DNA from: Moniliella sp. 'wahieum'
Lineage: Eukaryota
DNA: 64,000 bases
Assembly (NCBI GenBank): GCA_003971905.1
Contig: RSEE01000025.1
Span: 496,001-560,000 of the forward strand
Direction: 5' to 3'
Position 1 is the stretch's first letter, and the number at the start of each line of letters is the position of its first letter. Made by a program: the position numbers and the translations under genes. Of this stretch, positions 1 through 46,890 are shown piece by piece. Below the pieces are notes generated by a model. The model was not told the origin of the DNA and searched no databases. It saw only the letters and a program-made list of their open reading frames with translations.

Positions 1-17
1 GTGGAGACACTCTAAAC

Positions 18-131
18 ATGTAGAGGAATGCAGTCGAGGTGGGGCGGTGGTGAAGGTCTAAGCCTTTTGCCACACCAAGAGGAGACAGGGGTTCGAACGC
101 CGGAGTAGTATCCACGTGGTGGCTTCGGAGG
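18..131 (-). repeat. Short dispersed repeat, copy A; homologous to both flanks of the retroelement at 14.75-16.73 kb
   Basis: 60-97 matches the reverse complement of 16642-16679 at 36/38 nt (26 nt exact). 116-131 matches the reverse complement of 14754-14769 at 16/16. Weaker similarity extends to about position 18. Confidence 0.75.
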
Positions 132-444: not shown

Positions 445-490
445 CTCAACATGAGCGGCAGCGACATCTCAACATGAGCGGCAGCGACAT
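445..490. repeat. Perfect 23-bp tandem duplication (CTCAACATGAGCGGCAGCGACAT x2)
   Basis: Seen directly at 445-467 and 468-490, downstream of the chitin synthase stop. Confidence 0.9.
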
Positions 491-918
491 ATCCTGAAGC
501 GTTTCCAGGGCAGAAAAGGGCGAGGGTACCGACCCTAGGCAGAGTAGGGTGGCAGTGACAGTAAGGGAGGTATAGCAGGCTGTGCAGAAAAGAGCGTCGT
601 CCAAGAGCACTGGCATAAGAACGAATGCGCAAGGGATCGGGGGGGGGGGGGTTACGGAGTGACCAAGGAAGGTGTGCAGCTGGGAACGAGCGCGGGAGTG
701 GGTGAGGTGTAAAAAGGAGGGAGGGGGGCAAGACGAGACGAGACGAACTGAAAGGGAACGCCTACTGAACTCGAAGGGCGTGATTGGTGGTTCATGACCG
801 TGCGGGAATAAGACAGCGGGGGAGAGCCAAAAGAATGTGGGTAGACCGACGCCTGCGTCGGCAAAACCAAGCACCCGCTTTGGTTCAACTCTACCCGCCA
901 TAGGAACCACGATGTCAA

Positions 919-3848
919 TCATGATTTGCGACACGGCATCCGTACCAAGCGTGTCAACCAAAAGACGAAGAATCCACAGAATTTGAAGAAGGCCAGGCCA
1001 AATGTGGTCCACAACAGCACCTAGCGAAAATCACGTCAGTAAGCAAGATGGGAGGAAGGGGAGGTTGATGGGACGAACTTTAAAGTAGTACCCTTGGATC
1101 CTTTGTTCGTCTTGTTTCATCGCCTTTTCAGTGACGTTGTAGTGCAAACCGGCCAAGTTCTGAATGGCGACCGTCAAAGCGCCATTGCACAGGATCCAAA
1201 ATACGACCAAGCGTGTGCGGAAGGTGCGGTTGCTATCGTCCATACTAGGTTTCCTTCTTCTCTTCCACCACAACGGGGGCAACTGCGCGTTGACCACTTC
1301 ACGAAAGTGTGCGTCAATGTCTTCTTGCTCTTGTTCCACTTCCTCGATGGTGCCGTCCGGGGCTTTGGCCTTCTTGGTGTCTACGGAAGGCAGCACGTCG
1401 GCTTTGTCCGATCCCTTGGTGCCCCAACTCACGTCGTGCAGGTTGCAAAAGGCGTAGACGTTGAGAATGTTGGTCATGCTGGGTGCAATAGCGAGGTATT
1501 GAGGAAACGAGGTGATCATGTGCCACGGGTCGAGGTACATGATCGAAGCAAGGAGGTACACCCCAAAGGTGGCGATTAAGCTCGCAATCAGTACCGTCGT
1601 TGATTGTGCATTGGACATGATGACCGACCAAAACGTATCGGACCCTCGATTTGATGGGCCAAGTCGGTAAGCATGTCGACCGTAAGCCAGAGCGAGACGG
1701 TAAGCAAGTACATGCCCATCACAGCAAAGACGAAAAAGGAGAGAATGTAGAGTGGTTTCTCAGCCTTTGGTCGATTTCCCAGTGCCAGAACAAACTGAAG
1801 GATCAAGAAAAAGATGTAGACCCACTCGCAACCTAGGTTGACCCAATGCAGAATCATTTGCACCGTGTCGTTCGAGTTCTCGAGAATGTTGTCGGGAAGG
1901 AACTGGATGATAATCGAGAAGGTAAGCCAAAAGTTGGCCAGAGCAAACCAAGTGACAAAGAGCACAATGAAGTTGTAGAGGGCTTGGATGTGGAAGAAAA
2001 GATCCGGATAATGTTGTGCCCCGAACGGTAGATTTTCCAAAAATGAACCAACGAGTAAATCGAGGCGGCAAAAGAGCCATTGAGCCAACGCCGGCGCTGA
2101 CTGATGAGCTCTGCCGCCCCTCGGGAACGTCCGTCTCGCCCTTGGCATTTTTCACGTACCCCAAGGTCCAGCGGTCGCCCATCTTGAAAACCAATTCAAA
2201 GCACAAGATACGGTCTTCAGCCAGAAACATGTTCTTGGTAAAAATGCCCATGCCGTGTAATCCCTTCTTGCCCAACCGATCGGCCAAAGTGTGGTCCCCA
2301 TGAAAGTATTGTTCCAGGGGCCGGCCTTGGATGGCACGGTACGGTACGCACTAAACGCACCAGGCAAAACCGAGACATACCAAACGCACTCTCCAGGGTT
2401 TGTCCAGAATGTTGCTCATTTTGTACTCAAAGTTCTGGGCCGCCACCAGCGGGTTGAACAGTTTGACTCCGCCTTTGATCATCGCGTGAATTTCGCCGCA
2501 GCAGCCACCAGATGACTATTGTTGTACATGGCCTCCCACAGGTAGTACAGACTCCTGGGGCTCGGCTTGGTTCCCGCGTCGAGGAGAATGCACGTCTCAG
2601 GTTCAAGATGACGTCCAAGCGCATTGAACAACCAGCGGTGCGAGTTGATTTTCTTGGAGTTTTTCTCTTGAGGCAAAAGATCATTTGGACGGGCACAAGG
2701 TTGCTATCGTCGTTCCCGTGGGGCTGAACGAGGGAGGTTTGGAATCAACAGAGAGTTGGGTAGTGTACTCGAAGATGTGAGCGACAGTCTCTTTCCCATC
2801 GACTTGTCGTTTCATAACTCCGTCCTGGTACACCCCCACTGTAGCCAGCAAATCCAACACCTCCTTGTCACACGGGTCGATGCCGTCAAAAATGAGCGAG
2901 ACGACGATGCGTTGCCAGCCGGGTCGACCCTCCTCGCCGAACGGCGCCAAAACTTGGAAGCCTTGGATTTGCAGATGTCTCGAATGTTGAGCATGACACC
3001 ATGCAGCGTGCGGGCGACAAGGATACGGTCCTCATTGTAATACGTGATGGCGATCAGCAACTCGGTGTCACGCCCATACTGATCCGAAGCCCTTAGGGTC
3101 CAGCCATTCTCCTTGGTGAAGTCATCCGGATCGCAGGTGGCGGCCGTGTAGCGCATATGAAAACTCGGTCGTTTTTTGCCCTGCGTCCATTTGGGTTCAA
3201 AGGCGTTGCGGATGGCCGTGGGCACACGATGCTCGACGATCCAATGGCCCCGCGTTAGTTTAACCTTCCGCGTCAGGCCACGTTTGGGCTTGGCCTGGCG
3301 CTGTGCCCAAGCGAGCTGCGACTGTGACTGGTCCGGAAGCATGAGCTGGGAGGAGCTGTCGGTGAGGGTGGTGCCGGGGTGCATGCGGTACGGAGACATG
3401 GGCGGGGGGACAGCGTGGCGCCAGAGTAGCTGTGGGGGAGAGTGATGTGTGTGTACACACAGGAGTTAGTATGGCCGCATATGAGAGAGGAGGGGGAGGG
3501 TACGCACCCATACTGTTGGTATGGACGTTGCGCGGGGGCGGGTAGTTGACCCATCGGCATCAGCTTCTCGGTGGGCGGCTTGTCATCCGACAGGGGGTAG
3601 TGGCCGCCGGCATCGTAATAGCCTGCGCTGCCGTACCCCTTGTTGGAGAAGTCGGAGTAGCTGTTGCTGGCCGACGAATGCTGGGCGTAGTACCCGGAGC
3701 GGGGCTCGGCAGGAACAGGCCAGGCTGCTGTGAGGCGAATAGGAGAACGCTGGGAGTGGCGGCGGCAAGCCGGCGCACCGGCCTGGACGTGCAGGTCCGA
3801 GGCGGAGTAATAGCCGTCGTTGACCGGCGCGTAGGGCGAGCGACTCAT
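919..3848 (-). CDS. Chitin synthase, division 1 (class I/II/III), intron-containing
   Basis: Motifs across frameshifted ORFs: [74 protein letters not shown] region, [14 protein letters not shown] helices. Start MSRSPYAP at 3848; last exon [14 protein letters not shown]...CRKS* ends at 919. Confidence 0.93.
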
Positions 3849-4139
3849 GGGTGGGTGGGGGTACGAGGCGGGAGAAGAACTGTGAAGAGAGAGGTGGAGG
3901 GAGGGGTGGGTGGAGGAGGAGGAGGAGGAGGAGGAGGACGAGGCAGCGCCGCGCCGACCAGCGAGAGCCGGGTGGGGCGCTGCTCCGGTTGCTGCCAGGG
4001 CAGCGTGCCTGCTGTCACGCATGGGGCACAGCGCCAGTGCCTGGCGGGATGGGGGCAGCTTGCAGCAGGAGGCACTGGCGCTGTGCGCGCCACTTGCCGC
4101 GCGCCACACAGTGTGGTGGTGCGGCATTGGTGCCCTGCA

Positions 4140-4240
4140 CGACGTGTGACATGCGACGTGCCATGGGCATGACATGTGACATGTGACATGGGACATGCGC
4201 CTGGGGGGTGGATGCCACGTGTGATGCATGATGCATGATG
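4140..4240. repeat. 7-bp-period palindromic array (TGA-CATG)n and (TGA-TGCA)n
   Basis: tgacatgtgacatgtgacatg at 4170-4190; tgatgcatgatgcatgatg at 4222-4240. Confidence 0.8.
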
Positions 4241-5176
4241 GGGTGCGGATGTGCACGGCATGGCCAGCCCCATGACGCTGACAGCTGGGTGGCGCCGCGC
4301 GGGGGCCGCAGGGGGCCCCCTTGCATGCTGCCCGTGCGCAGCCAGAATGCCCCCCCCCAGCCACGCGTGACTACTGATACTGATACTGACAAGCGAGAGC
4401 GCGCCGCCAGGTGTCTAACTCATGCACCTTGCAAAACCCCTGGGACGCCCCCGCGCTGGCCCATTCGCTTACGTACAACCAAGCACGCCAGGGCACACCT
4501 CCTCAAACCCAACCTCAGGCCTAAGGGCCTCAAGCCTCAGGTGGCAAGCAAAACCTCTCACATCGTCAAGTCGATCACAGAAGCCCTCACGCCGCGATCA
4601 GCGCCAGCGCCAGCCCCCCGAAAGAGCAGGAGGCCAGCTATGATCGCTAGAGGATTGAGTCGCTAGAGGGATTGAGTACTGGTGAGCGCGGGGCGAAAGA
4701 GGTAGTGAGAGGAGGGATGATGGGAAGGAGCCAGAGAGAAGAAGACGAAGTTATCCCACTGGAGACTGTAGGTCTTTAGAAGGAGGCCTGTCAGTGGTGT
4801 GTTGCCAGCATTCCGCCAGGTGGAGATGGAATGCTGGAGGTACGAGGTTGGAAGACGAGGAGGCATTAGTGGAGACGAGATTATCACGAGAAGGAAACAG
4901 GTCGACAGACAGGTCACTAACAGTTGGATGTTCGCTTGAATTATCAGTGGCTATGCATATTACGGAAAATGCCGGTTAATCCCTGTCCTTTATCACTTCA
5001 AGGTCGTGAGCGAGGCTTCACGCGCTTCGCGCTTCGAAAGGCTGCTGTGAATAATATGGATTGATCCACAAGGAGTTGATCCTGGTGCAGTCGACAGGGA
5101 TACGGAAGCTCATGGAGCACATGCTTTGGGAGAAGCGGGGTAGTGATCGATCAAAGAGCCAACTGGGGTAGGCAAG

Positions 5177-5289
5177 ATAGGATGGATCGGATAGGATCGG
5201 ATAGGATAGGATAGGATAGGATAGGATAGGATAGGATAGGATAGGATAGGATATAGGATAGGTAGGATAGGATAGGAGGATAGGATAGG
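5177..5289. repeat. (GATAG)n pentanucleotide microsatellite
   Basis: About 20 perfect and imperfect GGATA units just 3' of the kinase stop. Confidence 0.95.
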
Positions 5290-5335
5290 TTTGATTCAAG
5301 CAGGGATAGAAACACGCCCCGACGACGGGGCAAGG

Positions 5336-8300
5336 TCAGAGGTCGTGCACCGCTGGAGCAAAGTGGTGTAGCAAGACTTGTATGCCCACGCGCTGCCGCG
5401 CATGCGGCGAATATCGACCGAGTATAGTCCCGGCAAGTTCTTGAGCCGGTAATTTCAACACTAACCGCACCTCTTGCCCGCCATCGGCGTTGGTCTGGCC
5501 ACGGGCTGGGGGGGAGCTTCCCCGCTGAGACGGGGGCAGCAGGTGAGGTGCCCTTCTCCCCTTCAGAAGGCAAGGAGGGAAAGACAGAAGTACGGAAGGC
5601 ACGCCACGCCCCGCGTCCCCCACGCGCCGCCTGCTTCGGGCGCAGACACTCCAGCTTAAACTGCTCTTGGCCCGCCAGATGGAACTCAATGCCCATCTCT
5701 GTCAGAGCTGTCCGTACCCGCGCCAACATCTCGGTCGGCGGACGGACGTTAAGGCGGATTGGTCCACGGCGCCCTCGTGATACCGCAGCATGGCATCTGA
5801 AATGCTGCCGCTGGTCGTCTTGGTAGGAGCTGGAATCTTGGCCTGTTTGAGAGGCGCGGTCTCCTCGAGGGGAGCGGTGAGGTGCGTATCACGACTGAGA
5901 TCACTATGTGTGGCACTGGAGTGGCTTGAAGGCTTAATTGGTTGAGAAGGGCGAGCGGTCGGAGAGCCTGGGCGGATGGACGAGCCTGGGTGGGTCTCGG
6001 CGCTGAAAGAGGTTGATGCTGGGGCGAGCCGGTGCTGGCCGAGCCGGATGTTTGACGGCTACGGCCACGGAACCAGTCCATGACACGCTTGGCTGGCCCG
6101 GTTGATGCCTTGCTGCCTTTAGGTTGAGAGGGCATACGGGGGGCCTGAACCGAGGGTTGTGGGCGGGGGGCAGGGGCCTGTGGCGCTGAAGGCACTTCAG
6201 ACGTGGCCTTCTCCTTGGCCATCTGCACGGCCACCTTGCGGTCCCGCTCGGCTTGCGCGAGGGGAGTAAAGACAGAGTCTTCCTTCGGGAGGACGTAACC
6301 GACTCATTCGATTGTTTCGAATCCTGCAGACCCATTGATGGGGCCTGGCTGGCAGAAGTGGAGGAAGAGGCAGTGCGGTGCGGCATAATCCTGGCAAAAG
6401 GAATTGCGTCGGGATCCAGGCACCCGTTGTTCCTTGGGGGGCATGAGTGACATGCGCCGCTTCCAGACGGGACCTTCTCTACAGGAGTACTGACTGAGCG
6501 GGAGCGGGAACGGGTATCCTCACGTTGCATCGTCGTCGGAAGCATCACCTGCTGAGGCTGGCTGGATGTGGTATCCTTTGTTACGACCACTTTCGTGGGT
6601 GCGGCACGAGTATCCGCTTCCTTGACAACAACGGGACCGAGGGGGGAATAGAAGACGTTGCTTCACGTTGGGAGCGGCCTTTGGCAGTAGCTTGTTGAGG
6701 CTCAGAGCCTAATGGGAGTCCAGCTACCTTCTGGTGCGGAACACGCGGCTCCTCGACTGCAAGGACATGTTCGAGCTTCTGCGGAAGTTGAGATTTCGTC
6801 GAGTTGGGGAGAGGCGTGGGCGCAGGAGCTTGTTCAGCTGAAGTATCCGCTTGCGTCGTCTGTTCTGGAACTGGATCCTCCGTGGCCACGTGCGTCTCTT
6901 TGCAATAGAATGCGAATCCGACGCAGGCTGCGTTGACACACGGGAAGGGGTCATCTCCTCTGGGTCCTCCATCACAACCGCGCCAGCACCCATCAGGATG
7001 GGCCCGGCGACGCCTGGGGAGCTTCGGGTGCAATCTCTTCAGTGGCGGAAAGGGGCGTTTCCGGGTGCACTGTACTCTACTTGCAAGGTGTGGCGGTTGA
7101 CATTGGCCGCGGCAGGCAACTGAGAGGAAAGGGGCTTGTTCGGCAGGTCAGCTGGGCGGGAGGCAGGAAGCGGCATGGCTGTGTTGCGGTAGTTGTGTTG
7201 GGACGAAACCTGGGGGATGTCGGCAATGGTCTCGCTGCGAGGAGGAAGCCCATGAGAGGGGGGATCGGGCGGTAAGGCAAGCATGGGGGGTTGGCGTTGG
7301 AGCTGGTGTTGCAGCTCCATTTTTTTCGGTAGTGTTGACGCTTGCGCGCCTGCTGCTCTGCTGCTGCCCGTTCCAGATCCTCCACCCCAAAGGAGAAGAG
7401 GGGGTGGAAATCGGAAAGCCAAGGATGGGCCATGACCTCCTCCATTGTTGCGCGGTTGGCCGGGTCAGGAACGAGCATACGCCGCAGAAGGTCGCGTGGG
7501 AACTCGGGGAAATAGTCGGGAAAGGTGAGGGGAGTAGAGAGAATGTAGTGGTAGAGCTGGTTGATGTTGTCGGAATCAGGATTGGCTGGGTCATCGTCGA
7601 AGGGAAGATAGCCCGCCAGCATGGCGTACAGAATCACTCCACACGACCACACATCGACCGCCGAACCGGTGTATTGCCCGTCCTGCACCACGAGTTCGGC
7701 GCTGCATAGCAGGGCGAACCGCAGGAGGTGGACATCAAGTCGTTGGCGCGGCCCGAAAAGTTGTTGGCGAAACCAAAGTCGGTAATGATCATGTTGCGAT
7801 TCCGATCCAGGAGCAAGTTTTCCAGTTTGAGGTCGCGATGCACAATGTGTTTCTGGTGAAGGTAGTGCACGCCGCTGATGAGTTGTGCAAACAAGCGGCA
7901 AGCTTCCTTCTCCCGCAAACACTTGTGGGCAAGGATATAATCAAAGAGCTCTCCACCTTGTCACAAGTAGAAGTAGGGTCAATGAGGGGCCCATAGATAG
8001 GGGAGGCAAAACATACCGATGCATATTCAAGTACAATTCCAATGTAGCGCTCGGTAGTGGCGACCTCGTAAAGGCGGACAATGTTGGGGTGCCGAACAGC
8101 CCGTAGCATTTCGATTTCACGATCAATTTTGGACATTATGATCGACTGGTGCTCGGCGAGGGATTCGGGCTTAGGTGCGTGGTCGCGGCGAATGAGCTTG
8201 ACAGCGACCTCCTCTCCATACTTCTTATGCACCCCGCTTGACCTTGCCAAACTCCCCTTCGCCCAGGGTTTGGAGCAAGAGATAGTCGCCTAGTAGGATC

Positions 8301-8590
8301 TGCGGGCGATGCGGTGAGGCGCCGAAGTACTGCAACGCGGCTGGGCTGGTAATAGGGATGCCCTTGTTGGCCAGCTCAGCGGCCAGGCGTGGATCAATGC
8401 CCTGCGCACGGAGCGAGGCGGCAGCTGCGCTTGCCGCACTGGTATCGTCGGTGGTCAGAGAGCTGGGGGGCTGAATGGTGCTGACGCTGGCGGTGCGGGA
8501 AGAAGGCTGGGCGGAGGGAAGGAGCGGGGGCGCAGCGGGATGGGGAGAAATCGTCGGCGACGACGATGGAGCAAAGGCGACGGCAGCCAT
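5336..8590 (-). CDS. KIN4: Ser/Thr protein kinase, CAMKL Kin4/Ppk1 family, with C-terminal KA1-like domain
   Basis: [54 protein letters not shown] and the Kin4-typical [31 protein letters not shown]. Low-complexity linker, then C-terminal [12 protein letters not shown]...FKLECLR. Intron near 7959-8015; several frameshifts. Confidence 0.85.
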
Positions 8591-9741
8591 CGCAGCCGTA
8601 ACACCGGTCGGAAGGAGGGCGGGGACGGTGGTGGTGGGGGGGGTGGTGGTGGCAGTGGGAAGGCCGGCGGCCGGAGGGGATGGCAGGTGGGGGCGACGGC
8701 GGGGCGGCGGAGGAGCAGGAGGCAGGTGGGCGCGCGTTCAACTTCAACGTTCAGCGTGGTTAGCACGCAGCTGCAGCGGCGACAGCTACGCAGTGCCCCC
8801 CAAGCAGCCCAGCGCAAGTCATTAGCACTATGCCCGCTCGCTAGTCACTAGCCACGGCGCCAGTCCCCCGTGGCCCAGCAGCTTTCCTCGTCTTGTCCGC
8901 CACTGCCCCCGCGCGCGGCCGATCAGCGTCACGCATCACGCTTCGCCCCATCCGCCATCCCCTCTCTCTCCCCGCTCGTTCCGCCCAGCATCCCGTCCGC
9001 GCGGGCTGCGGGCAAGGCGAGGCTGCCGAAGCCAATGTTCTCCTCTGGCGAGCTCCTCGTTCCCCCTCTCGTGTCCTGCGTTGCATACTCTTAGACACAA
9101 CTTGCAAGCACTCGACAGCATGCACAACGGAACACACCCTTACGACGCGCAGCACCAAGTGTTACCAAGTCCACTGCTGGGTCAGCAGCAGACTCCTCAT
9201 AGGGTCGGGTTACAGCCAAGAACGGGTTCATAACAACGGCAGAGGGAAAGTACAAGGTAGAACGCAGACGGAAGAACAGGCAGAACAGAGGGCGCGGGAG
9301 GAAGGCCGGATGTCTCGGCCTGTCCCCGCCACCCGTCAGCCGTAAGCTCTGAGCAAAAGTAAAAAGCAGGAGAGCGAGGTGTGTATGAAGAGGGCGCCAT
9401 GCGGGGGTAATGAGGTGGGTCATGACAGGAAACATCTCACATCACATAAAAGTTGGACGCGCAGGTGTTGATGGGAACGTGGGTGTAAAGTAGCGGAAAA
9501 GGGATTGTGTACCACAATGACTGGTAGATGTCTCGTCGGCCCGGAAAGAGACATACTGTTGGTAAGGAGTGGCACCGCGGCAAAGAGGAGCGCGCAAGTT
9601 GCGAGAGGGCATAACAAAAAGGGAACGTCCGCAAACCAGAGGAGAAAAGATGGAGGAAGGACGCAAACATAGAAACAAGAGGAATTCGTCGCGTAGCTTC
9701 AACCAGCTTACGCTTCACCGCCTTCAACAAGAAAGACCAAA

Positions 9742-12700
9742 TCAAGCACTCACTCCCTGCGAGTCGAACATTGATGAACCAAAGTCGGGCCCGTCAAGGT
9801 CAAACAAGCCCAACATACTTTCTAGTTGCTCATCGCCACCCATGTCACCCAGACTGGCAAATGAAAAGCCTCCCGAATTGGATGCTAGGGCCAGCCCAGC
9901 CCACCACCGGACGGAACCGCCGCGGTGCACTGGCAGGCTCAGTTGCCGTTGCAGCAGGTGCGCCCATCGCATCGGCACCTACGCTCGATGAGGTAGGTAG
10001 ACCGATCATTGGATCAGCCGAAGGAGTCTCCATTGACCCAGGAGGTGGAGCGGTCGGGGCATCAGAGACCTGGACCGAGGGGCCCTCTGCGGTAGGTGGC
10101 GCTTTCGAAGAAAGAGCTGGACTTGATGTCCCTGTATGGGCCGAATTGTCTGTTTGACGCCCAGATTGCGGATTGGTTCCTGTCGACTTGGTGGAGCCCT
10201 TGCGGGCGCGGGGGGCGGGTCTGCTTTTCCCACGCGACGACGTCCGAGCGGCGAGGAATGGGTGCATGGCCGACGTGAGACCCAGGCTCACCAGGGGGCA
10301 GGGGTAACGGGGGAGGGGGCCTGAGGCTGCGACCGCAACTGCGCTTGGTGCTGCATCATGCCCTGACCTGGAGCTGATGGCGGCTGTCATCAGGGAAGCT
10401 TGAGCCTGTCCTCGCCTCAATTGCACAGCCCCTTGAACCGAGACGGGATTCCTGCGGGCTGGCCAGAAAGCCTGCGGAGAGCCTGTTGCTCTCCAGAGCC
10501 AGGGTAAACTCGGGGTTTTTGGTGGCCACACCCTGGATCGGCAGCTGCCCCTCATTGATCTGGGAAAGCATCCTCTCCAGCTCAGTTAGCCGAGCACGAT
10601 ACACGCTCACCTCGGCGTATGCTTGCTGCGACACCTGCTCGATGTAGCCCCCTGAGCGCGGGAATACCCCGCCTTGATGGCCGCATGCAGTTGCTGCACC
10701 TGTGCAAGGATCTGCATCGGGTTGCATGTGCCGCTGGTGCTACACCGCCCGGAACATCCCCCTGGTTGGGAACCTGGATTAGCTGCCCCCCTGAGCACGC
10801 GAGGCCGCGTCGGGTGCGCTTTGCGGAAAAGATCCCCGGATGGTGGGGCGCCCGCATACCCGTTTTGCATCGGAAGCCCCTTTGGAGGGCAAGTGATTCA
10901 GCATGGTGCATTTGTTGCCTTGGCTGCTGATGCTGCAGTTGTTGTTGCAGTTGCAGTTGTTGCCGTGTGCAACAGTTGCTGCTGTTGAGTGTGCAATTTG
11001 GCCATCTGAGCTTGCTGCAGCTGAGCTTTGATGTTGGTCTTGCAGTGAGCTGGTGTGAGCTGGAGCGGGGCTCGGGCTTGAGATTGGCTCTGAGCTTGCG
11101 CTGAGCTGGGCAGCTTGGGCTCGGCTTGTGCCTGGGCAGGCCCTGGGATTGTTGCTTGTGACTGAGCTTGTGCTTGAGCTTGTGCCTGGGCTTGTGCCTG
11201 TGCTTGGCTGTGCGGCTTGGGCTTGGGCTTGGGCTTGGGCCTGTGCTTGTGCTTGGGCTTGAACTAGGGCATGAGCTTGCTGGACTGCAATCAAGCCGGG
11301 AGGGACTTGGGCAAGGATGTGAGCAATGTTGTGAGGGCCCAAATGGGCGATGAGCTGGACCTTGGTCTGCAACGATGCTACCTGAACATCTGCAAGGCTG
11401 ATCGCCTTGCGCTGAGCGGCAGTGGAGATGAGGGCTGATTGTTGGCCGTGGCTCAATCTGCTGAGCCATTGGGTCAACTGAGCTAAGTCATGCGTTGGAT
11501 AAACGCCACTGCTTGCGCCATCTCGCTCGGCATGCTTGCCTGGGCTCCGGGTGGAAGCCCACCCATGGTTGTCACGCCCGCGGTGGGAACCGGCCGATTC
11601 AACCCCGCCACAACTCCGCCTGCCCCTTGAGATGCAGGCACGGCTTGTCCACTAGTGATGCCCTCCCCTCTGGCACTTGGCCCTGGCCAGGCGGACCCAT
11701 TCGTGAGGTAGCAGAGGAGGAAGCGGTATGTGCCCCTGCTTGTCCGGCAATTCTTTGGCTTGCTGGCGGTGGTGAAGAGGCGGAAGGTGCTGGAGCATAG
11801 GCCGCCCCGGCGTGGGCGTAGTTCTGTGCGTTGGGAACAGTATGGGGACTAGACTCGGCCGGTGCGCTCGCCTGGGACATGCTCAAACGGCCTATCATAC
11901 CAGCGTGCGAGTCGGGCTGCGGCTGGGACACGGCAAGCTGCGCTGGTCCCGCGGGCGCTGTGGCTGGCACTGCTTTCCCCGCAGCAGCAGAGGCGTCCTG
12001 CAAACGTACCTCCGCACCTGAGTTGGGATCGGTAGGAACAGAACTGACCCATCCCACACCATTGGTAGAGCTGGTGGTGCTGTTCGCTGGGCCGCGCACG
12101 ATCGAAGGAAAAAGGTTTGAGAGGCTTCCCAAGCACCAGAACGACTTGATATTCCGGCTTTGGACTCGGCTCGAAACCTGAGCAACGCAGCTTGGTACGT
12201 GGCAAAAGTGCGTGCCTCCACGCTTTGATGATAAGTCCGGGCTGGTAGGCTCCCCCTCCCCGAGCGGGCATTAAACAGGTCCCAAAAGAGGTACCAATAC
12301 CTAGAGACAGGTCAGCTTCGACCGTGAGTTGGTATGAGATGAGATGAAATGAGACCAAACGTACTCAAACAAGAGGCCTTGTGGCGTCTTGAGCGGCACT
12401 TTGGGTGGGTCACCCAGGCCAGCATCAGTGATCAAGGCTTGGGCTGCAGAATGATACCCACGGCGTTTGCAGTAGTCCCAAATGTATAGGTCGAGCTTGT
12501 CCGCCTCTCGCCCCCATGAACTCTTCTCCTTTACACTGTCGTTTTGCGAAGCATCGAGACGGACCGCTTAGGCTTGGTGTACTGTTCTGAATCTTGTCCC
12601 GATGCAGACACATGAGAGGAAGTACGCTTACGCGTGGCACCCACGTCGCCACCAGTAGGCTTAGGAGCGTCGACAGCGCCGCCCTCATTGCTATGCACCT

Positions 12701-13724
12701 GCCATGCTCGTATTTCCCGGACGAACAAGAGCGATCGTGCTGGCGTTGCTGATGCTGCGGCTGTGGCTTCTGCTGCGACTGCCGCTGTGCCCGCTTGGGA
12801 TACTTCCCTCCTTCCGCTCGATCTCGAGGGCGACTGGGCCCGCCATTGGTAGGGGTAAGGCTGAGGACCGCATTGGTAGACTGGGTCTTACTGAGCGGTT
12901 GCGGAGGATCGTCTTGTTGAGTGCTACTCGGCTCGTCTCTACCGGAGTTAAGGCCGGACGCGTTCGGGGGGGTTGTGGGAGGTGGCGGCGCGTCTAGGCT
13001 GGTGGGGGCTGCCTCAGAGGGAGCAGAGTCGGGGGCGTAGACGTGTGGGGAGCAGAATCGGGAGGAGCAATCTCGGTGGGGGCAGGCTCGACTGTAGTAG
13101 GGGCGGAAGCCAAAGCAGAAGCGGAAGGAGGAAACTGGGTATGTGGAGAGGTAGAGGCAGGAACAGGAGCAGACGTGTCGTAGGAACAGTGGTAGGGGAT
13201 ACGGCTGTACGTGTGGATACAGATGGGGGTGAGGATGGAGCAGGCGCAGGAGCAGGAGTAAGAGCAGGGTCAGGCGCCAATTCGTTTGAGGCTGCGAAAC
13301 TGTTGGCGAGCGCACCCCAGTGCGTGTCCAGCATGGGCGAGGCGGGAGAGTTTCGGTCTGCGTCGAGGGGGTGGGAAGGGTGGGAAGGGTTGGACAGGGG
13401 CTGTGGCTGTGGCTGTGGCTGCTGCGGCGGCGAGGCGCGATTCACAGACTCGGAGGAAAACGCGTCCATGCCGAAGGCGGCGACAGCGACGGCAGCAGTG
13501 AAGCTTGCGCTGAGCGTCGATGCGGATGAGGATGCGGATGCGGATGAGGATGGGATGTGCGCGGATGCTGATGCTGATGCGGATGCGGATACCGATGCTG
13601 GCGTTGGTGCTGGTTGTGGTACTGGTACTGGTGCTGATGCTGATGTCGATGGCGGTCGTCTTCGGGCTTCCGCCCCACGAGCTTACGCGCGGAGGTAGTG
13701 GGCCACAGCGGCCCAGTGCCCATC
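9742..13724 (-). CDS. Hypothetical low-complexity (Pro/Ser/Ala/Gln-rich, AQAQ repeats) protein; boundaries uncertain
   Basis: A chain of overlapping minus-strand ORFs with consistent P/S/A/Q composition (MDAFSSESV..., AQAQAQ, EVSVYRARLTELERML). No family recognised. Confidence 0.4.
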
Positions 13725-13876: not shown

Positions 13877-14769
13877 CTGGCGCGAGCGGCGAGACGGTGC
13901 CGCACAGCAGCAGCCAGAGCCAGAGCCAGGACCAGAATTATAGCCCACAAGCGGGACAAGTGCATGTGGTGTCCATGCTCCAATATAATTCGGTCGTCCG
14001 TTGCAATTACAGTATCAGAGTCGATTGAAAAGGCGTAGCAGGGTGATCATGTCGGTCCCACCTGCACCCATGGTGGCTGCACCACTGCAGTAAGCACATT
14101 TTTCGTTCGCGGGGGAGAGGACGAAAAAAGAGATTATGGAGATATGCATGATATTTTATGGGCATTTTATTGTGACAAAGCCGTGTGTCTTTGTTTCCTC
14201 TCCAAAGCGGGAGGAAGTTTGCCCGCGCCTCATCTCTATAATAGGGAAAAGAGAAAGGGGTACTGTCGATAGAAGTTCGTCTCATTATACGAGACACAGT
14301 TTTTTGAAGCAAATGGAAGAGGGGGACATGGCTATAATATCATACCCCTTCATTCCATACAAATTGAAGTCGTTTGCTCTGCCGAAGTGTATCTCGATGC
14401 CCTGTTCATTTACCCCCACCACCTCTTCCGTCGGAAGTGGCTTTCCGCAGGGGTTTTCATGAGCCATACGTGTGATCGGAACGGAACGTCAATGTCCACG
14501 GTATCACACCATCCTATGGTTCTCCTGTGGAACCAGGAGAGATTCCCTTGGCGGGAAGTAGATTGTATTTATATGACCTCTGTATAGCCAGCTAGTAACC
14601 ATCCGGTATCGCCTTTTCACCCACATGACCTGCATGACTTCGATGGAGTATAAGGGAAAGGTGCTGGGAAACATGGTCCCGTAGTACTCACAGAGGCCAC
14701 AACAAGCGTCCTGTAACCCGTGGTGCCCCTTTTTTATTTGAATTTAAGAGAGACCTCCGAAGCCACCAC

Positions 14770-16622
14770 ATGTATGCGGAAATGGGCGACTTCAGCCACG
14801 TCGCCATGCTCGACTTTACCAACGCGTTCAACACTGTGCGCCGTCGCACACTCGCCAAGGCGCTCCATGCTACGCCCCCCACCTCCTCACCTTGGGCCGG
14901 TGGATCTATGGTTCCCCCACCCAGCTTTGGGTTGCGTCGGGCGGAAATGAGACCAGCGTCCTGTCGGCAGAGGGCGTGCGGCAGGGCGACCCCCTCGCCC
15001 CTTTTTCTTCTCCATCGCAGTGCGGCCCACGCTAGAGAAGTTGAGCATTGCTCTGCCGCCGGGGCACCTGGTGATGGCATACCTGGACGACATTACCATT
15101 TTCGGTCCAGAGCCAGGCATTACCGGCCAAGCTGCGGAGATTTGGAAGACGACGCGTCAGGCCTCAAGCTCAACCTGCGCAAGTGCGTCGAGCGGGACCG
15201 GGACCAGATCCGGGAGGATGGTCTGCAGGTTCTGGGCACTTGTGTGGGAGGGGTAGACTGTTGTCGATCGTGGCTCCGGGCCCAACTGGCCAGTCTGAGG
15301 GAGAACATGCCTAAGTTTGATGGCATCACCCGCCAGGGACGCCTCTTACTATGGCGGCTCAGCACTCAGACCAAGCTGCGCCACCTGCTCCGCACCATGC
15401 AGATGGAAGGAGAGCTAGACGAAGTGCTGGCCGAGATCGATGCCTTCATCTGTACGGAGTTCAGACGGATCCGGGGCGACGAGGATCCCCAAGGTGCCAA
15501 GGACGACCACTTCGACATGCTCATGAGCCTGCCTCTCCGGCTAGGAGGATGCGGCAGCCGCTTTACTCGTATATCGCGCCCCACGCCCGTGCCGCGGCCA
15601 ACGAGGTCAACGACTATCTTATTACCACTTATGTTGACCGTTCGGGACCGCAAACGGCAGAGGCCAACGCATTTACGAAGCAACGCCAGCGCTGCCGCGA
15701 GATGTGGGAGAAAAGTCGACAGGAGCTGCCAGAAGCTGGACGCTGCCGATGGTCGTCACGTGGTTGAGCACAGCAACCCGCTGAGCCACAACTGGCTCTC
15801 CGCCATTCCGTCCGTCCCATACCTCAGGCTCTCCGACCAGCAGGTCCAGGTTGGTCTCCAGCTCCGCACGCTGTGCCGCACCACGCGCAGCATGTGCAAG
15901 TGCGGTGTCATGTCCTCGCTGGAGCACATCATGTATTGCACTCGCTCCCAGGCCAAGTTTGGAGCGTTGCATGACGCAGTGCGGGAGCCCATTCTCCAGC
16001 TCCTACGCTCCATTCCCGAACCCATGTCCACAACGAACCAATGGTGGAGGACGAGGATGGCCGGAGACAGAGGACACAGCGCACTGACTACCGCGTGATG
16101 GGACCCGGAGCACTGGGAGGATCAGGAATGGAGGGGACCACACGCTGCGCGACACGGGATCACTGGCAGCGCAGAGCGCGTTCCGGAGGGTGGTGCACGC
16201 GAGCACCGCAACCCCCTTGGAACGCCGGGAGAAGGAGCTGCTTCGGATGCTTGAACAAGCAGAATGCGAGAAGAACGCCAAGTACCAGGGACGCACTCAA
16301 GAGACGTTTTTCCCCCTGGTTTTGACGACGCGAGGATACTACGGCACCAAGACGGCGAGCAAGTTGTTTGCGCATTGGAAGGAGTTGGCTACTAAGTCTC
16401 AGTGGAAATGGTTCCTCGCTCGGATGTCAACCACGTTCCTCCGTGTCCATACGCGCTTCCTAGGGTACGGGACCGGATGGCATGAGCCGGAGGGTCCTGA
16501 TACCTGGCGATCCCCCTGGTTCCTTGACCCTGGTGGCGCCCCTAAGTAACCCCCGCAAGATGAACGGTTAGGTTTAGACGTAGCGTTCCCCTGTCCCAGC
16601 CTTCTTAAGTCTGCCAATTGAA
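14770..16622 (+). mobile_element. 5'-truncated non-LTR retrotransposon, CRE clade (Cnl1/MoTeR-like): reverse transcriptase, CCHC knuckle and restriction-like endonuclease
   Basis: Frameshifted ORF 14770-16549: LDFTNAFN, GVRQGDPLAPFFFS, VMAYLDD, GLKLNLRKC, VLGTCVG, LSLPLRLGGCG-like thumb motif (LMSLPLRLGGCG), WLSAIP, CKCG...HIMYC, LHDAVR (RHD-like), RTDYRV (PD-like), EKNAKY, FFPLVLTTRG. RT motifs upstream of domain 3 are absent. Confidence 0.9.
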
Positions 16623-16732
16623 TGGAAGTTACTAAGGCTTTTTCGAAGCCCTATCTCCTCTTGGTGTGGCAAAAGGCTTGGGCCTCAACATCTCAACCCA
16701 CCGTCAACCGTCGCGCTGTATTACCCTACATC
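16623..16732 (+). repeat. Short dispersed repeat, copy B (right flank of the retroelement)
   Basis: Reverse-complement similarity to about 18-114, including the 26-nt exact TCTCCTCTTGGTGTGGCAAAAGGCTT. Confidence 0.75.
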
Positions 16733-18108
16733 TCCAGAGCTTTTCTCCGTCGAAATGCTTGGGTTCCTCAGGTCTACAAACGGACAAGGAAGGCGGCATG
16801 ACATTACCTTAATTGTGCTGCTTATCTGGCTCATACGATGCCACTCTGTCCCGATGATCGATGACCCACTGTTGCTAGTATATATATGTCCGGCACATCG
16901 AGAGCCACACACGCAAAACAGGTTTTCGCGCCCCCCTCACACCTACTCCGGAGGCGGCGGGGAGACATCCGGACTTCGGCTGCTTGCTTGTGCTGTGGGC
17001 GCAATCGCGCATGGATACACTGCCTTGGCCTCCTCCAGTGGGAAGAGAGCCACCGCGCATGGCGAAGACCATATACGGGGCTGAAAATTCTCAGCGGAAG
17101 GCCACTTGTGCCTCTCGTCTGTACCTGGTCTCACAATCCCGCTGACCGCGGCTCACCGCCCACTGAGGATCAACGAGATCATCGATGAAATTATCCCGTT
17201 ATCGATTATCAATTGTCGCGCATCTCGATTATCAAAGTTGCGCAAGGGCGCGAAGCGGCGCCCCTGTGACCAGTCGACTGATCCACTCCACAGCAGAAGG
17301 CACCAGGGCAGCAAGTAATTCGTTGCTGGCGCTTGGCTTTCATGATATCAGCGCTGAGACTCAGTGCGCTCAGTCTTGAGCGCTGTGAGCAGGAGCAAGT
17401 AAACTGAAAATGCCCAGACTCAGCCTACTGTCAGCGCTTTTATGTAGGAACTGGGCGCTGTGGATGTTCAGGCGTTCACAGGGTCAGGCCGGTCAGGTGG
17501 AATATGCCGACATCCTGAACGCAGGCTCTGTCCCTCCGCTCTGCCCAGGGTTGGCGAGGGTGCAAAAGGCCCCGACAGTCGCCCAGTCCGCCTTGGCGTG
17601 GTGGCGTCTTGTTCTTGTGTGTATAGTATACAGATACGCGGTTCCGACCCGCGTTCTCGGGGTTAGCGAGACGCTCTGGGACACTGAGGGGCTTAGCCTT
17701 GCTTTCGGATCTTGTTGCTGTTGATGATTGACTTCTGAAACTCTGAAGCTTGACGGGCGCCTGACCGCAGAGAAAAGGAGGAACCACGCCGCCAAAGAGA
17801 AGGGGAGCACAAAGCTCTCCTAATATAGGGAGTCATGCACAGCACTCACACAGTGCAGGCCGATAGGCACCCTAAATCGGCGCCACAGGTACCACCGACC
17901 TCTCTTTCATTGCATGTTTTGGTCACGCGAGAGGCGTCCTGGGCTTTAAATCCTCCCACGTACACGTACCCCTCCTTCCATCGTTTCTGTTGGTGTCTCC
18001 TGGGCCTCTTCCTTCCGCCACCACTTCCTTGTTTTCACCCAAATCCACCCTGCTGCATTTCACCCCAATACACCTGTGCACCGCCAATATCGCTCTTGCG
18101 TGTCACCC

Positions 18109-21206: not shown

Positions 21207-21290
21207 GGACGGCTGGCGCAATGGTAGCGCGTCTGACTACGATTTTCAAAGTGTAATCAGGAGGTTGCAGGTTCGACCCTGCGTCGTTCG
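21207..21290 (+). tRNA. tRNA-Arg(ACG) with a 13-nt intron (about 21243-21255)
   Basis: Acceptor GGACGGC/GTCGTTC, D arm GCGC-AATGGTA-GCGC, anticodon stem TCTGA/TCAGG with CT-ACG-A, T arm GCAGG-TTCGAC-CCTGC (loop one nt short, probably an indel error). Confidence 0.9.
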
Positions 21291-46620: not shown

Positions 46621-46761
46621 GGTATATATCGGATGAGAGGGGCGAAAGGGGGGGAGAAGTGGTAAAGAAAGCGAGTTTCAAGGGGGTTACATTATACAGA
46701 AGGAGAAAGGAGAAGTTCACGCGTTCACATTCGCTCTCTCCACTGTTAGAATGGTGGGGGG

Positions 46762-46890
46762 TGACCGGTGACCGGTGACATGCGACCGGTGACATGCGAC
46801 GTGTGGCATGTGTCATGTGACATGTGACACGCGACACACCACTGGGCGTGGCTTGGTCGATCATCGATCAGAACGATCATCGATCATCTC
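46762..46890. repeat. 7-bp-period palindromic array in the H3/H4 divergent promoter
   Basis: Ten in-register units at 46762-46834 (CCGG/CATG cores); TCGA-TCA units at 46857-46887. Confidence 0.85.

Follow-up and report, generated by a model that had tools for sequence, protein, structure and literature searches.

The 64-kb stretch of DNA analysed here, referred to below as the window, contains a 5'-truncated non-LTR retrotransposon of the restriction-like endonuclease (RLE) type, flanked on either side by parts of a repeat unit, R, that is also found uninterrupted some 14 kb away, at the start of the window on the opposite strand. The uninterrupted unit is termed copy A, and that surrounding the retrotransposon copy B (Table 1). 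Both copies are intergenic, amid ordinary genes that include a chitin synthase, a kinase and a permease-like frame; copy A lies around 315 nt downstream of the end of the chitin synthase frame on the minus strand, with no homology to the reverse transcriptase (RT) or RLE beside it. The host is a fungus of the Ustilaginomycotina; the best named matches to the chitin synthase are from Pseudozyma flocculosa (71%), Ceraceosorus, Tilletiaria, Meira and Tilletia.

Table 1. Positions of the retrotransposon and of the two copies of R in the window.
Feature	Coordinates	Strand	Basis or remark
R copy A, uninterrupted	1..131	-	16-mer 131-116, GTGG 115-112, tail 111-1; cut by window start
R copy B, left part (16-mer CCTCCGAAGCCACCAC)	14754..14769	+	first base common to copy A
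ATGT, candidate left copy of the target site duplication (TSD)	14770..14773	+	three of four bases identical to ATGG; fills the gap between the 16-mer and 14774
5'-truncated RLE-type non-LTR retrotransposon body	14774..16621	+	profile and contig boundaries
ATGG, right copy of the 4-bp duplication-like motif	16622..16625	+	homologous to GTGG of copy A
R copy B, right part (tail), including the 44-nt core	16622..16752	+	alignment to copy A, which runs off the window

The domains of the element follow the order RT, starting from just before motif A (LDFTNAFN, AYLDD), linker, CCHC knuckle (15895-15939) and RLE domain, the last of these extending to around 16462. As an earlier note on this DNA had described, the open reading frame (ORF) and a short 3' untranslated region (UTR) precede the sequence shared with copy A: in the window's frame the stop codon occupies 16547-16549, leaving 72 nt up to the shared tail, and the UTR ends ...GCCAATTGA. 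When the longest frame (14638-16098) was compared with 1.84 billion representative proteins, 288 matches were found at E ≤0.001, amongst which P0001 (279 aa) is closely related to the C-terminal part, with 68% identity, the remaining matches having around 24-40%. A search for longer relatives of the RLE ORF found P0001 only, and no locus encoding relatives of P0001 was confirmed amongst the metagenome contigs searched. Amongst the relatives found, the nearest with a name is an uncharacterised protein of Kwoniella shandongensis, of the Tremellomycetes (XP_031857099.1; around 32% identity). The insert is a distant relative, at around 30% identity, of basidiomycete elements of the R2/CRE type.

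A profile constructed from 22 relatives aligns with 14785-16462, over positions 408-960 of 968 and with seven frame switches, but with nothing upstream of 14785 nor elsewhere in the 64-kb window. Coverage beginning only at position 408 implies that this copy is without both the zinc fingers of the N terminus and those RT motifs that precede motif A. The RT part of the profile (positions 408-820) runs from 14785 to 16026 and beyond, its best piece having an E value of 8e-61, as expected of a non-LTR RT. Pfam RVT_1 scored above the cut-off in six of the seven relatives scanned; the window's own broken frames matched it only at E 0.081, below the cut-off, in one of five pieces. At the C terminus, the CCHC motif and the downstream LHD, NEP, RTD and EKNAKY motifs fall in the columns that are invariant in the family (C, C, H, C, H, E and D) and at its KRxxY position, giving a CCHC knuckle followed by a PD-(D/E)XK restriction-like endonuclease; the second invariant D of the RLE is beyond a frameshift in the window, and its alignment comes from P0001. 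When the profile was compared with PDB sequences, the best matches were R2 proteins of insects and birds (9nl3, 9dou and 8gh6; E values of 6.4e-35 and 1.2e-34), with LINE-1 ORF2p at around 1e-14, and hence the nearest solved relatives are R2 proteins rather than APE-type LINEs; the similarity is at the level of the profile only, single-sequence PDB searches with the element giving no matches, and the window copy lies outside rDNA, unlike R2. No further copy of the element, full-length or otherwise, was detected in the window.

The body is represented in two public sequencing runs, a food metagenome (X1) and 'organism A' (X2), the contigs of which cover 14774-16603. Those listed over 14774-16581 have from 87% to more than 99% identity with the window, several being 98-99% identical. 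Relative to the window, the contigs have insertions of 1-2 nt at 14869, 14997, 15140, 15557, 15728, 16019 and 16134/16135, coinciding with all seven of the frame switches in the profile path. With the frameshifts matched in this way by insertions in near-identical contigs, the family appears to be young and the assembly of the window to be deletion-prone: the frameshifts probably reflect bases dropped by the assembly, the alternative being that sibling copies are intact, and on these comparisons the family looks young either way. In an assembly apparently prone to deletions, the frameshifts are weak evidence of decay.

Summed contig depth in X1 climbs toward the 3' end of the element, from 5.6 through 14.3 to 36.3, values that do not represent a copy number. 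Single-copy neighbours are barely covered in either run, whilst the element is present there as several contig variants. This pattern of cover is consistent with a multicopy family, many of whose copies are 5'-truncated, in a fungus of low abundance in a food metagenome. Neither run covers the flanks at 14089-14675 and 17024-17600, and X2 has no cover beyond 16581, although missing cover proves nothing. At 16502 an extra T is carried by the whole depth of X2 and by half that of X1; it would shift the stop codon around 22 nt upstream, giving a C terminus that by eye resembles that of P0001 (GPD..A.PLV), and, if so, the true 3' UTR would be somewhat longer than 72 nt. Elsewhere, the chitin synthase gene has a similar 2-nt difference from the contigs at 3160, host ORFs across 446-13700 are split into many frames, and the window is short of one or two bases at many places in 14869-16587.

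Read directly, the minus strand from 131 to 60 comprises the 16-mer and the tail of R in one unbroken stretch, just as the earlier note had quoted it. The 16-mer and core that are contiguous at 1-131 on the minus strand are separated by around 1.85 kb at 14754-16760 on the plus strand. The two exact occurrences of the 16-mer, one opening copy A at 116-131 on the minus strand and the other found where it had been placed, just before the truncated RT, are its sole matches in the window even with up to two mismatches allowed (shuffled sequences gave a mean of 0.08 at this threshold, reaching two matches in one of 100 shuffles); by sensitive alignment the match extends to 20 of 22 nt. A 26-mer core, TCTCCTCTTGGTGTGGCAAAAGGCTT, is found exactly twice, at 60-85 on the minus strand and 16654-16679 on the plus strand, and did not occur in any of 100 shuffles. 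A 38-nt core has 36 identical positions, and a 44-nt core (16642-16685) is 91% identical to copy A. The homology of the tail, previously put at about 16623-16679, is longer than that, extending by sensitive alignment from 16622/16623 to around 16749 with 89 of 126 positions identical (71%, E 4e-13) and ending at the point where copy A meets the first base of the window. The divergence of the two copies of R contrasts with the close similarity of the body to its contigs. A profile of the two copies found no third in the 64-kb window, and so the description of R as 'dispersed' or 'multicopy' rests on two copies in that one window.

The similarity of copies A and B sets in at a single common base, the 5' edge of R, upstream of which their flanks are unrelated (the local alignment score of 13 was reached by 70 of 300 shuffles). 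A common starting base with unrelated upstream flanks indicates that the 16-mer is the edge of a unit, rather than a random truncation point. The earlier note had regarded its own interpretation as refuted should the 16-mer prove to be an internal part of the RT coding sequence. Protein homology cannot decide this, because the RT linker before motif A is variable, but it is made unlikely by the boundary of the contigs at 14774 and by the shared first base, since two copies would then have been truncated at exactly the same base, yet no RT remains beside copy A. R is thus probably, as part of the whole interpretation favoured below, a pre-existing unit spanning 147 bp or more and sharply bounded on its 5' side by the 16-mer. 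It is unevenly conserved, stretches of 16 and 26 nt matching exactly within an overall identity of 71%, for which a rough hand estimate under uniform decay gives p ~0.01; this suggests some constraint on R, as a host element or a mobile unit, and such constraint would equally suit a tail belonging to a mobile element.

At the junctions, copy B reads as the 16-mer, ATGT, the element from 14774 to its end ...GCCAATTGA at 16621, ATGG and AAGTTACT..., whilst in copy A the 16-mer is followed by GTGG and ATACTACT... A 4-nt motif is hence single in copy A and found on both sides of the insert in copy B, with the chance of at least three of four bases matching being around 5% by hand calculation; ATGT may alternatively represent four untemplated bases at the 5' junction. 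The corresponding insertion point in copy A is the centre of an 8-bp palindrome, CCACGTGG, at 112-119. Over 14774-15185, one X1 contig (record 1) has 99% identity with the window, its left limit of sharing being 14774: of its 455 letters, 40 have no counterpart in the window, on a side that is ambiguous, and nothing is common to the left of 14774. A second X1 contig fits as far as 16603 and continues for 15 letters, which by eye correspond to 16607-16621, ending at the equivalent of 16621. Contig limits cannot prove the ends of an element, and these are taken as hints to the boundaries. The structure proposed in the earlier note, an element inside a repeat whose empty copy lies at the window start, has therefore held up, through the contiguous flanks in copy A, the 4-nt motif and the contig limits at 14774 and 16621; as aligned, copies A and B are an apparent filled and empty pair with a 4-bp duplication-like motif.

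R itself matches none of the classes of sequence with which it was compared. An Rfam search with R returned no match at the gathering level, the only hits being noise with E values of at least 3, and its predicted folds are unremarkable (z scores of 0.63 and -0.20); without an Rfam match or an unusual fold, its identification as a known RNA gene was rejected. A likeness of GTTCGAACCC to a B-box, or tRNA T-arm, was seen by eye only and has no support from the tools. R does not appear to be a MITE or a TSD-flanked unit, given that no convincing terminal inverted or direct repeats are found around 14500-17800, and a Helitron is likewise unsupported, the common sequence starting CCTC after differing bases rather than at A|TC, as judged by eye. 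An exact 22-mer of the tail core was found at no loci in collections of metagenome, prokaryote-genome and viral contigs. Part of the 16-mer, AAGCC...ACCAC (14759-14769), could base-pair with segments of the tail core, GGTGTGGC...GGCTT (16647-16679); this complementarity may be chance, and the predicted folds do without it.

These observations are best read as a target-primed, 5'-truncated insertion of the retrotransposon into a pre-existing unit of R, with copy A an uninterrupted paralogue, an interpretation that we consider probable, if far from secure. The endonuclease would have nicked R inside CCAC|RTGG, 16-20 bp from its 5' edge, and reverse transcription would have proceeded from the 3' end of the element, ...GCCAATTGA, until halting just before RT motif A, so that the copy would have been dead on arrival. 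Joining would then have left the putative 4-bp duplication ATGT/ATGG, and copy A, a diverged paralogue of R, would represent the empty site. Of this, the two boundaries, the unbroken flanks in copy A, the domains present and the 5' truncation are shown, and the nick position, the duplication and any preference for R are inferred. The evidence in favour includes the 16-mer and tail being contiguous in copy A and split in copy B, far beyond chance, together with the common starting base, the 4-nt motif at the junctions, the contig limits, the young body and its RT, CCHC and RLE content; truncated insertions with short TSDs are also described for Cnl1 (PMC12810828). Against it, there are only one filled and one uninterrupted copy, the two copies of the duplication differ at one of four bases despite the young-looking insert, the 3' end of R is outside view and the conservation of R is uneven. 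A mirror-image history, in which the sequence between the 4-nt motifs was deleted, would leave an indistinguishable arrangement.

Such a deletion is central to one rival, which we regard as improbable: copy A would be a bipartite non-autonomous derivative consisting of the 5' end of an element and its 3' tail, along the lines of MoTeR2 or of the short, internally deleted elements known for R2, with the 16-mer being the true 5' terminus of the family, the tail its true 3' end and copy B another, internally deleted copy. The exact 16-mer and 26-mer inside 71% identity do resemble conserved functional ends, and deletion or template switching would be in keeping with the RTG microhomology found at the two junctions, but two independent deletions would have to start within the same ~4-6 nt of a multi-kb element. 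The tail, moreover, has no similarity to any part of the element body, and the X1 contig ending at the equivalent of 16621 has no tail after it, although this is only a hint. Less probable again is that both copies are filled, the tail being the element's own 3' UTR and copy A an extreme 5'-truncated insertion of at least 115 nt from an older subfamily, with the 16-mer being one half, the upstream one, of a short and specific target. Elements of this kind normally include very short 5'-truncated insertions, those of Cnl1 being described as small as 180 bp (PMC12810828), a site-specific nuclease would be expected to leave the same 16-mer before both 5' junctions, and a conserved tail core could be an element recognised by the RT. 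However, copy A would need to be truncated exactly at 16622, the point at which the X1 contig ends, the match between ATGT and ATGG would have to be the chance event estimated above, and the upstream target would be conserved over only 16 nt, with nothing further upstream. A by-eye impression that the DNA upstream of copy A resembles the 3' UTR of the element was not significant, 274 of 300 shuffles scoring as high.

The data on targeting comprise one insertion, in one of the two R units visible in the 64-kb window. Nested transposons are common, and a further rival, which concerns only the targeting question and is compatible with insertion into a pre-existing R unit, is that the element has no preference for R and is simply a young transposon surviving in an old intergenic repeat. 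This we hold as a tentative possibility: only one insertion is available and both copies of R are intergenic, and Cnl1 is likewise described as landing at varied internal sites (PMC12810828). On the other side, most RLE-bearing non-LTR lineages are described as target-specific (PMC4640811), and the insertion is at the centre of an 8-bp palindrome near the edge of a unit. A real preference of the element for R is doubtful, and the precise proposal that a Cnl1-like RLE family of this Ustilaginomycotina fungus, rather than being telomere-specific, targets R as a hitherto unrecognised short repeat, by cutting a CCACGTGG-type palindrome 16-20 bp inside its 5' edge, seems unlikely as it stands. If true, this geometry, similar to that of SLACS and CRE, could let the element ride on the transcription start of R. 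The filled and empty pair, resolved to the base, nevertheless provides a concrete candidate target, CCACCAC|RTGG within R: were the family always found at this point it would represent a new target specificity in the clade, and otherwise this would be an ordinary nested, dead-on-arrival insertion.

Fungal elements of the CRE/Cnl1 type are known telomere-seekers. In the 64-kb window, no run of two or more TTAGGG or CCCTAA units is found, and neither junction (CCACCAC|ATGT and TTGA|ATGG) is telomere-like; the copy is hence not at the telomeric or subtelomeric location of the Cnl1/MoTeR/FoTeR clade. Cnl1 of Cryptococcus is nonetheless the system most readily compared, being described as a basidiomycete non-LTR element that, as here, has an RT and a C-terminal CCHC/RLE domain (PMC9942834, PMC12810828). 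Most of its copies are described as 5'-truncated, with TSDs of 0-13 bp and internal loci (PMC9942834, PMC12810828), and the window copy is itself 5'-truncated, internal and associated with a 4-bp motif; the truncated Cnl1 insertions are given as 180 bp-3.5 kb in length, including those at chromosome-internal loci (PMC12810828). According to PMC9942834, Cnl1 inserts preferentially into its own copies near telomeres, the repeated sequence that it prefers thus being itself, whereas here the host repeat R has no similarity to the visible element. Cnl1 is also reported to land in genes, with TSDs resembling the telomere seed, and its exact target rule is called undefined (PMC12810828; bioRxiv 10.1101/2021.08.11.455996). 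MoTeR1 and MoTeR2 of Pyricularia oryzae and FoTeR of Fusarium oxysporum are similarly described as having an RT and REL, with CCHC followed by RHD-type, E, R/KxD and D/E motifs (PMC12857005). They differ from the internal window copy in sitting in telomere repeat tracts, and in the spacing of the knuckle, C-x2-C-x6-H-x3-C as given in PMC12857005, the window having C-x1-C-x7-H-x3-C-x9-LHD, which fits the spacing given there for SLACS and CRE.

The geometry of the insertion also recalls the trypanosomatid elements. SLACS, CRE1 and CZAR occupy one set position close to the 5' end of spliced-leader RNA genes, and share with the window copy both the spacing of the REL motifs and an insertion a few bases (16-20 here) in from the sharp 5' limit of a repeated unit. 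In contrast to these systems, R matches no known RNA gene and only one insertion is seen.

Elsewhere in the window, the only Rfam match at the gathering level is a tRNA gene at 21207-21290 on the plus strand (46.9 bits), which at 84 nt may contain an intron. There is also a GGATA/GGATAGGAT microsatellite at 5174-5258, and arrays of a GTGACAT-like 7-nt unit are found at 4170-4205 and 46755-46846.
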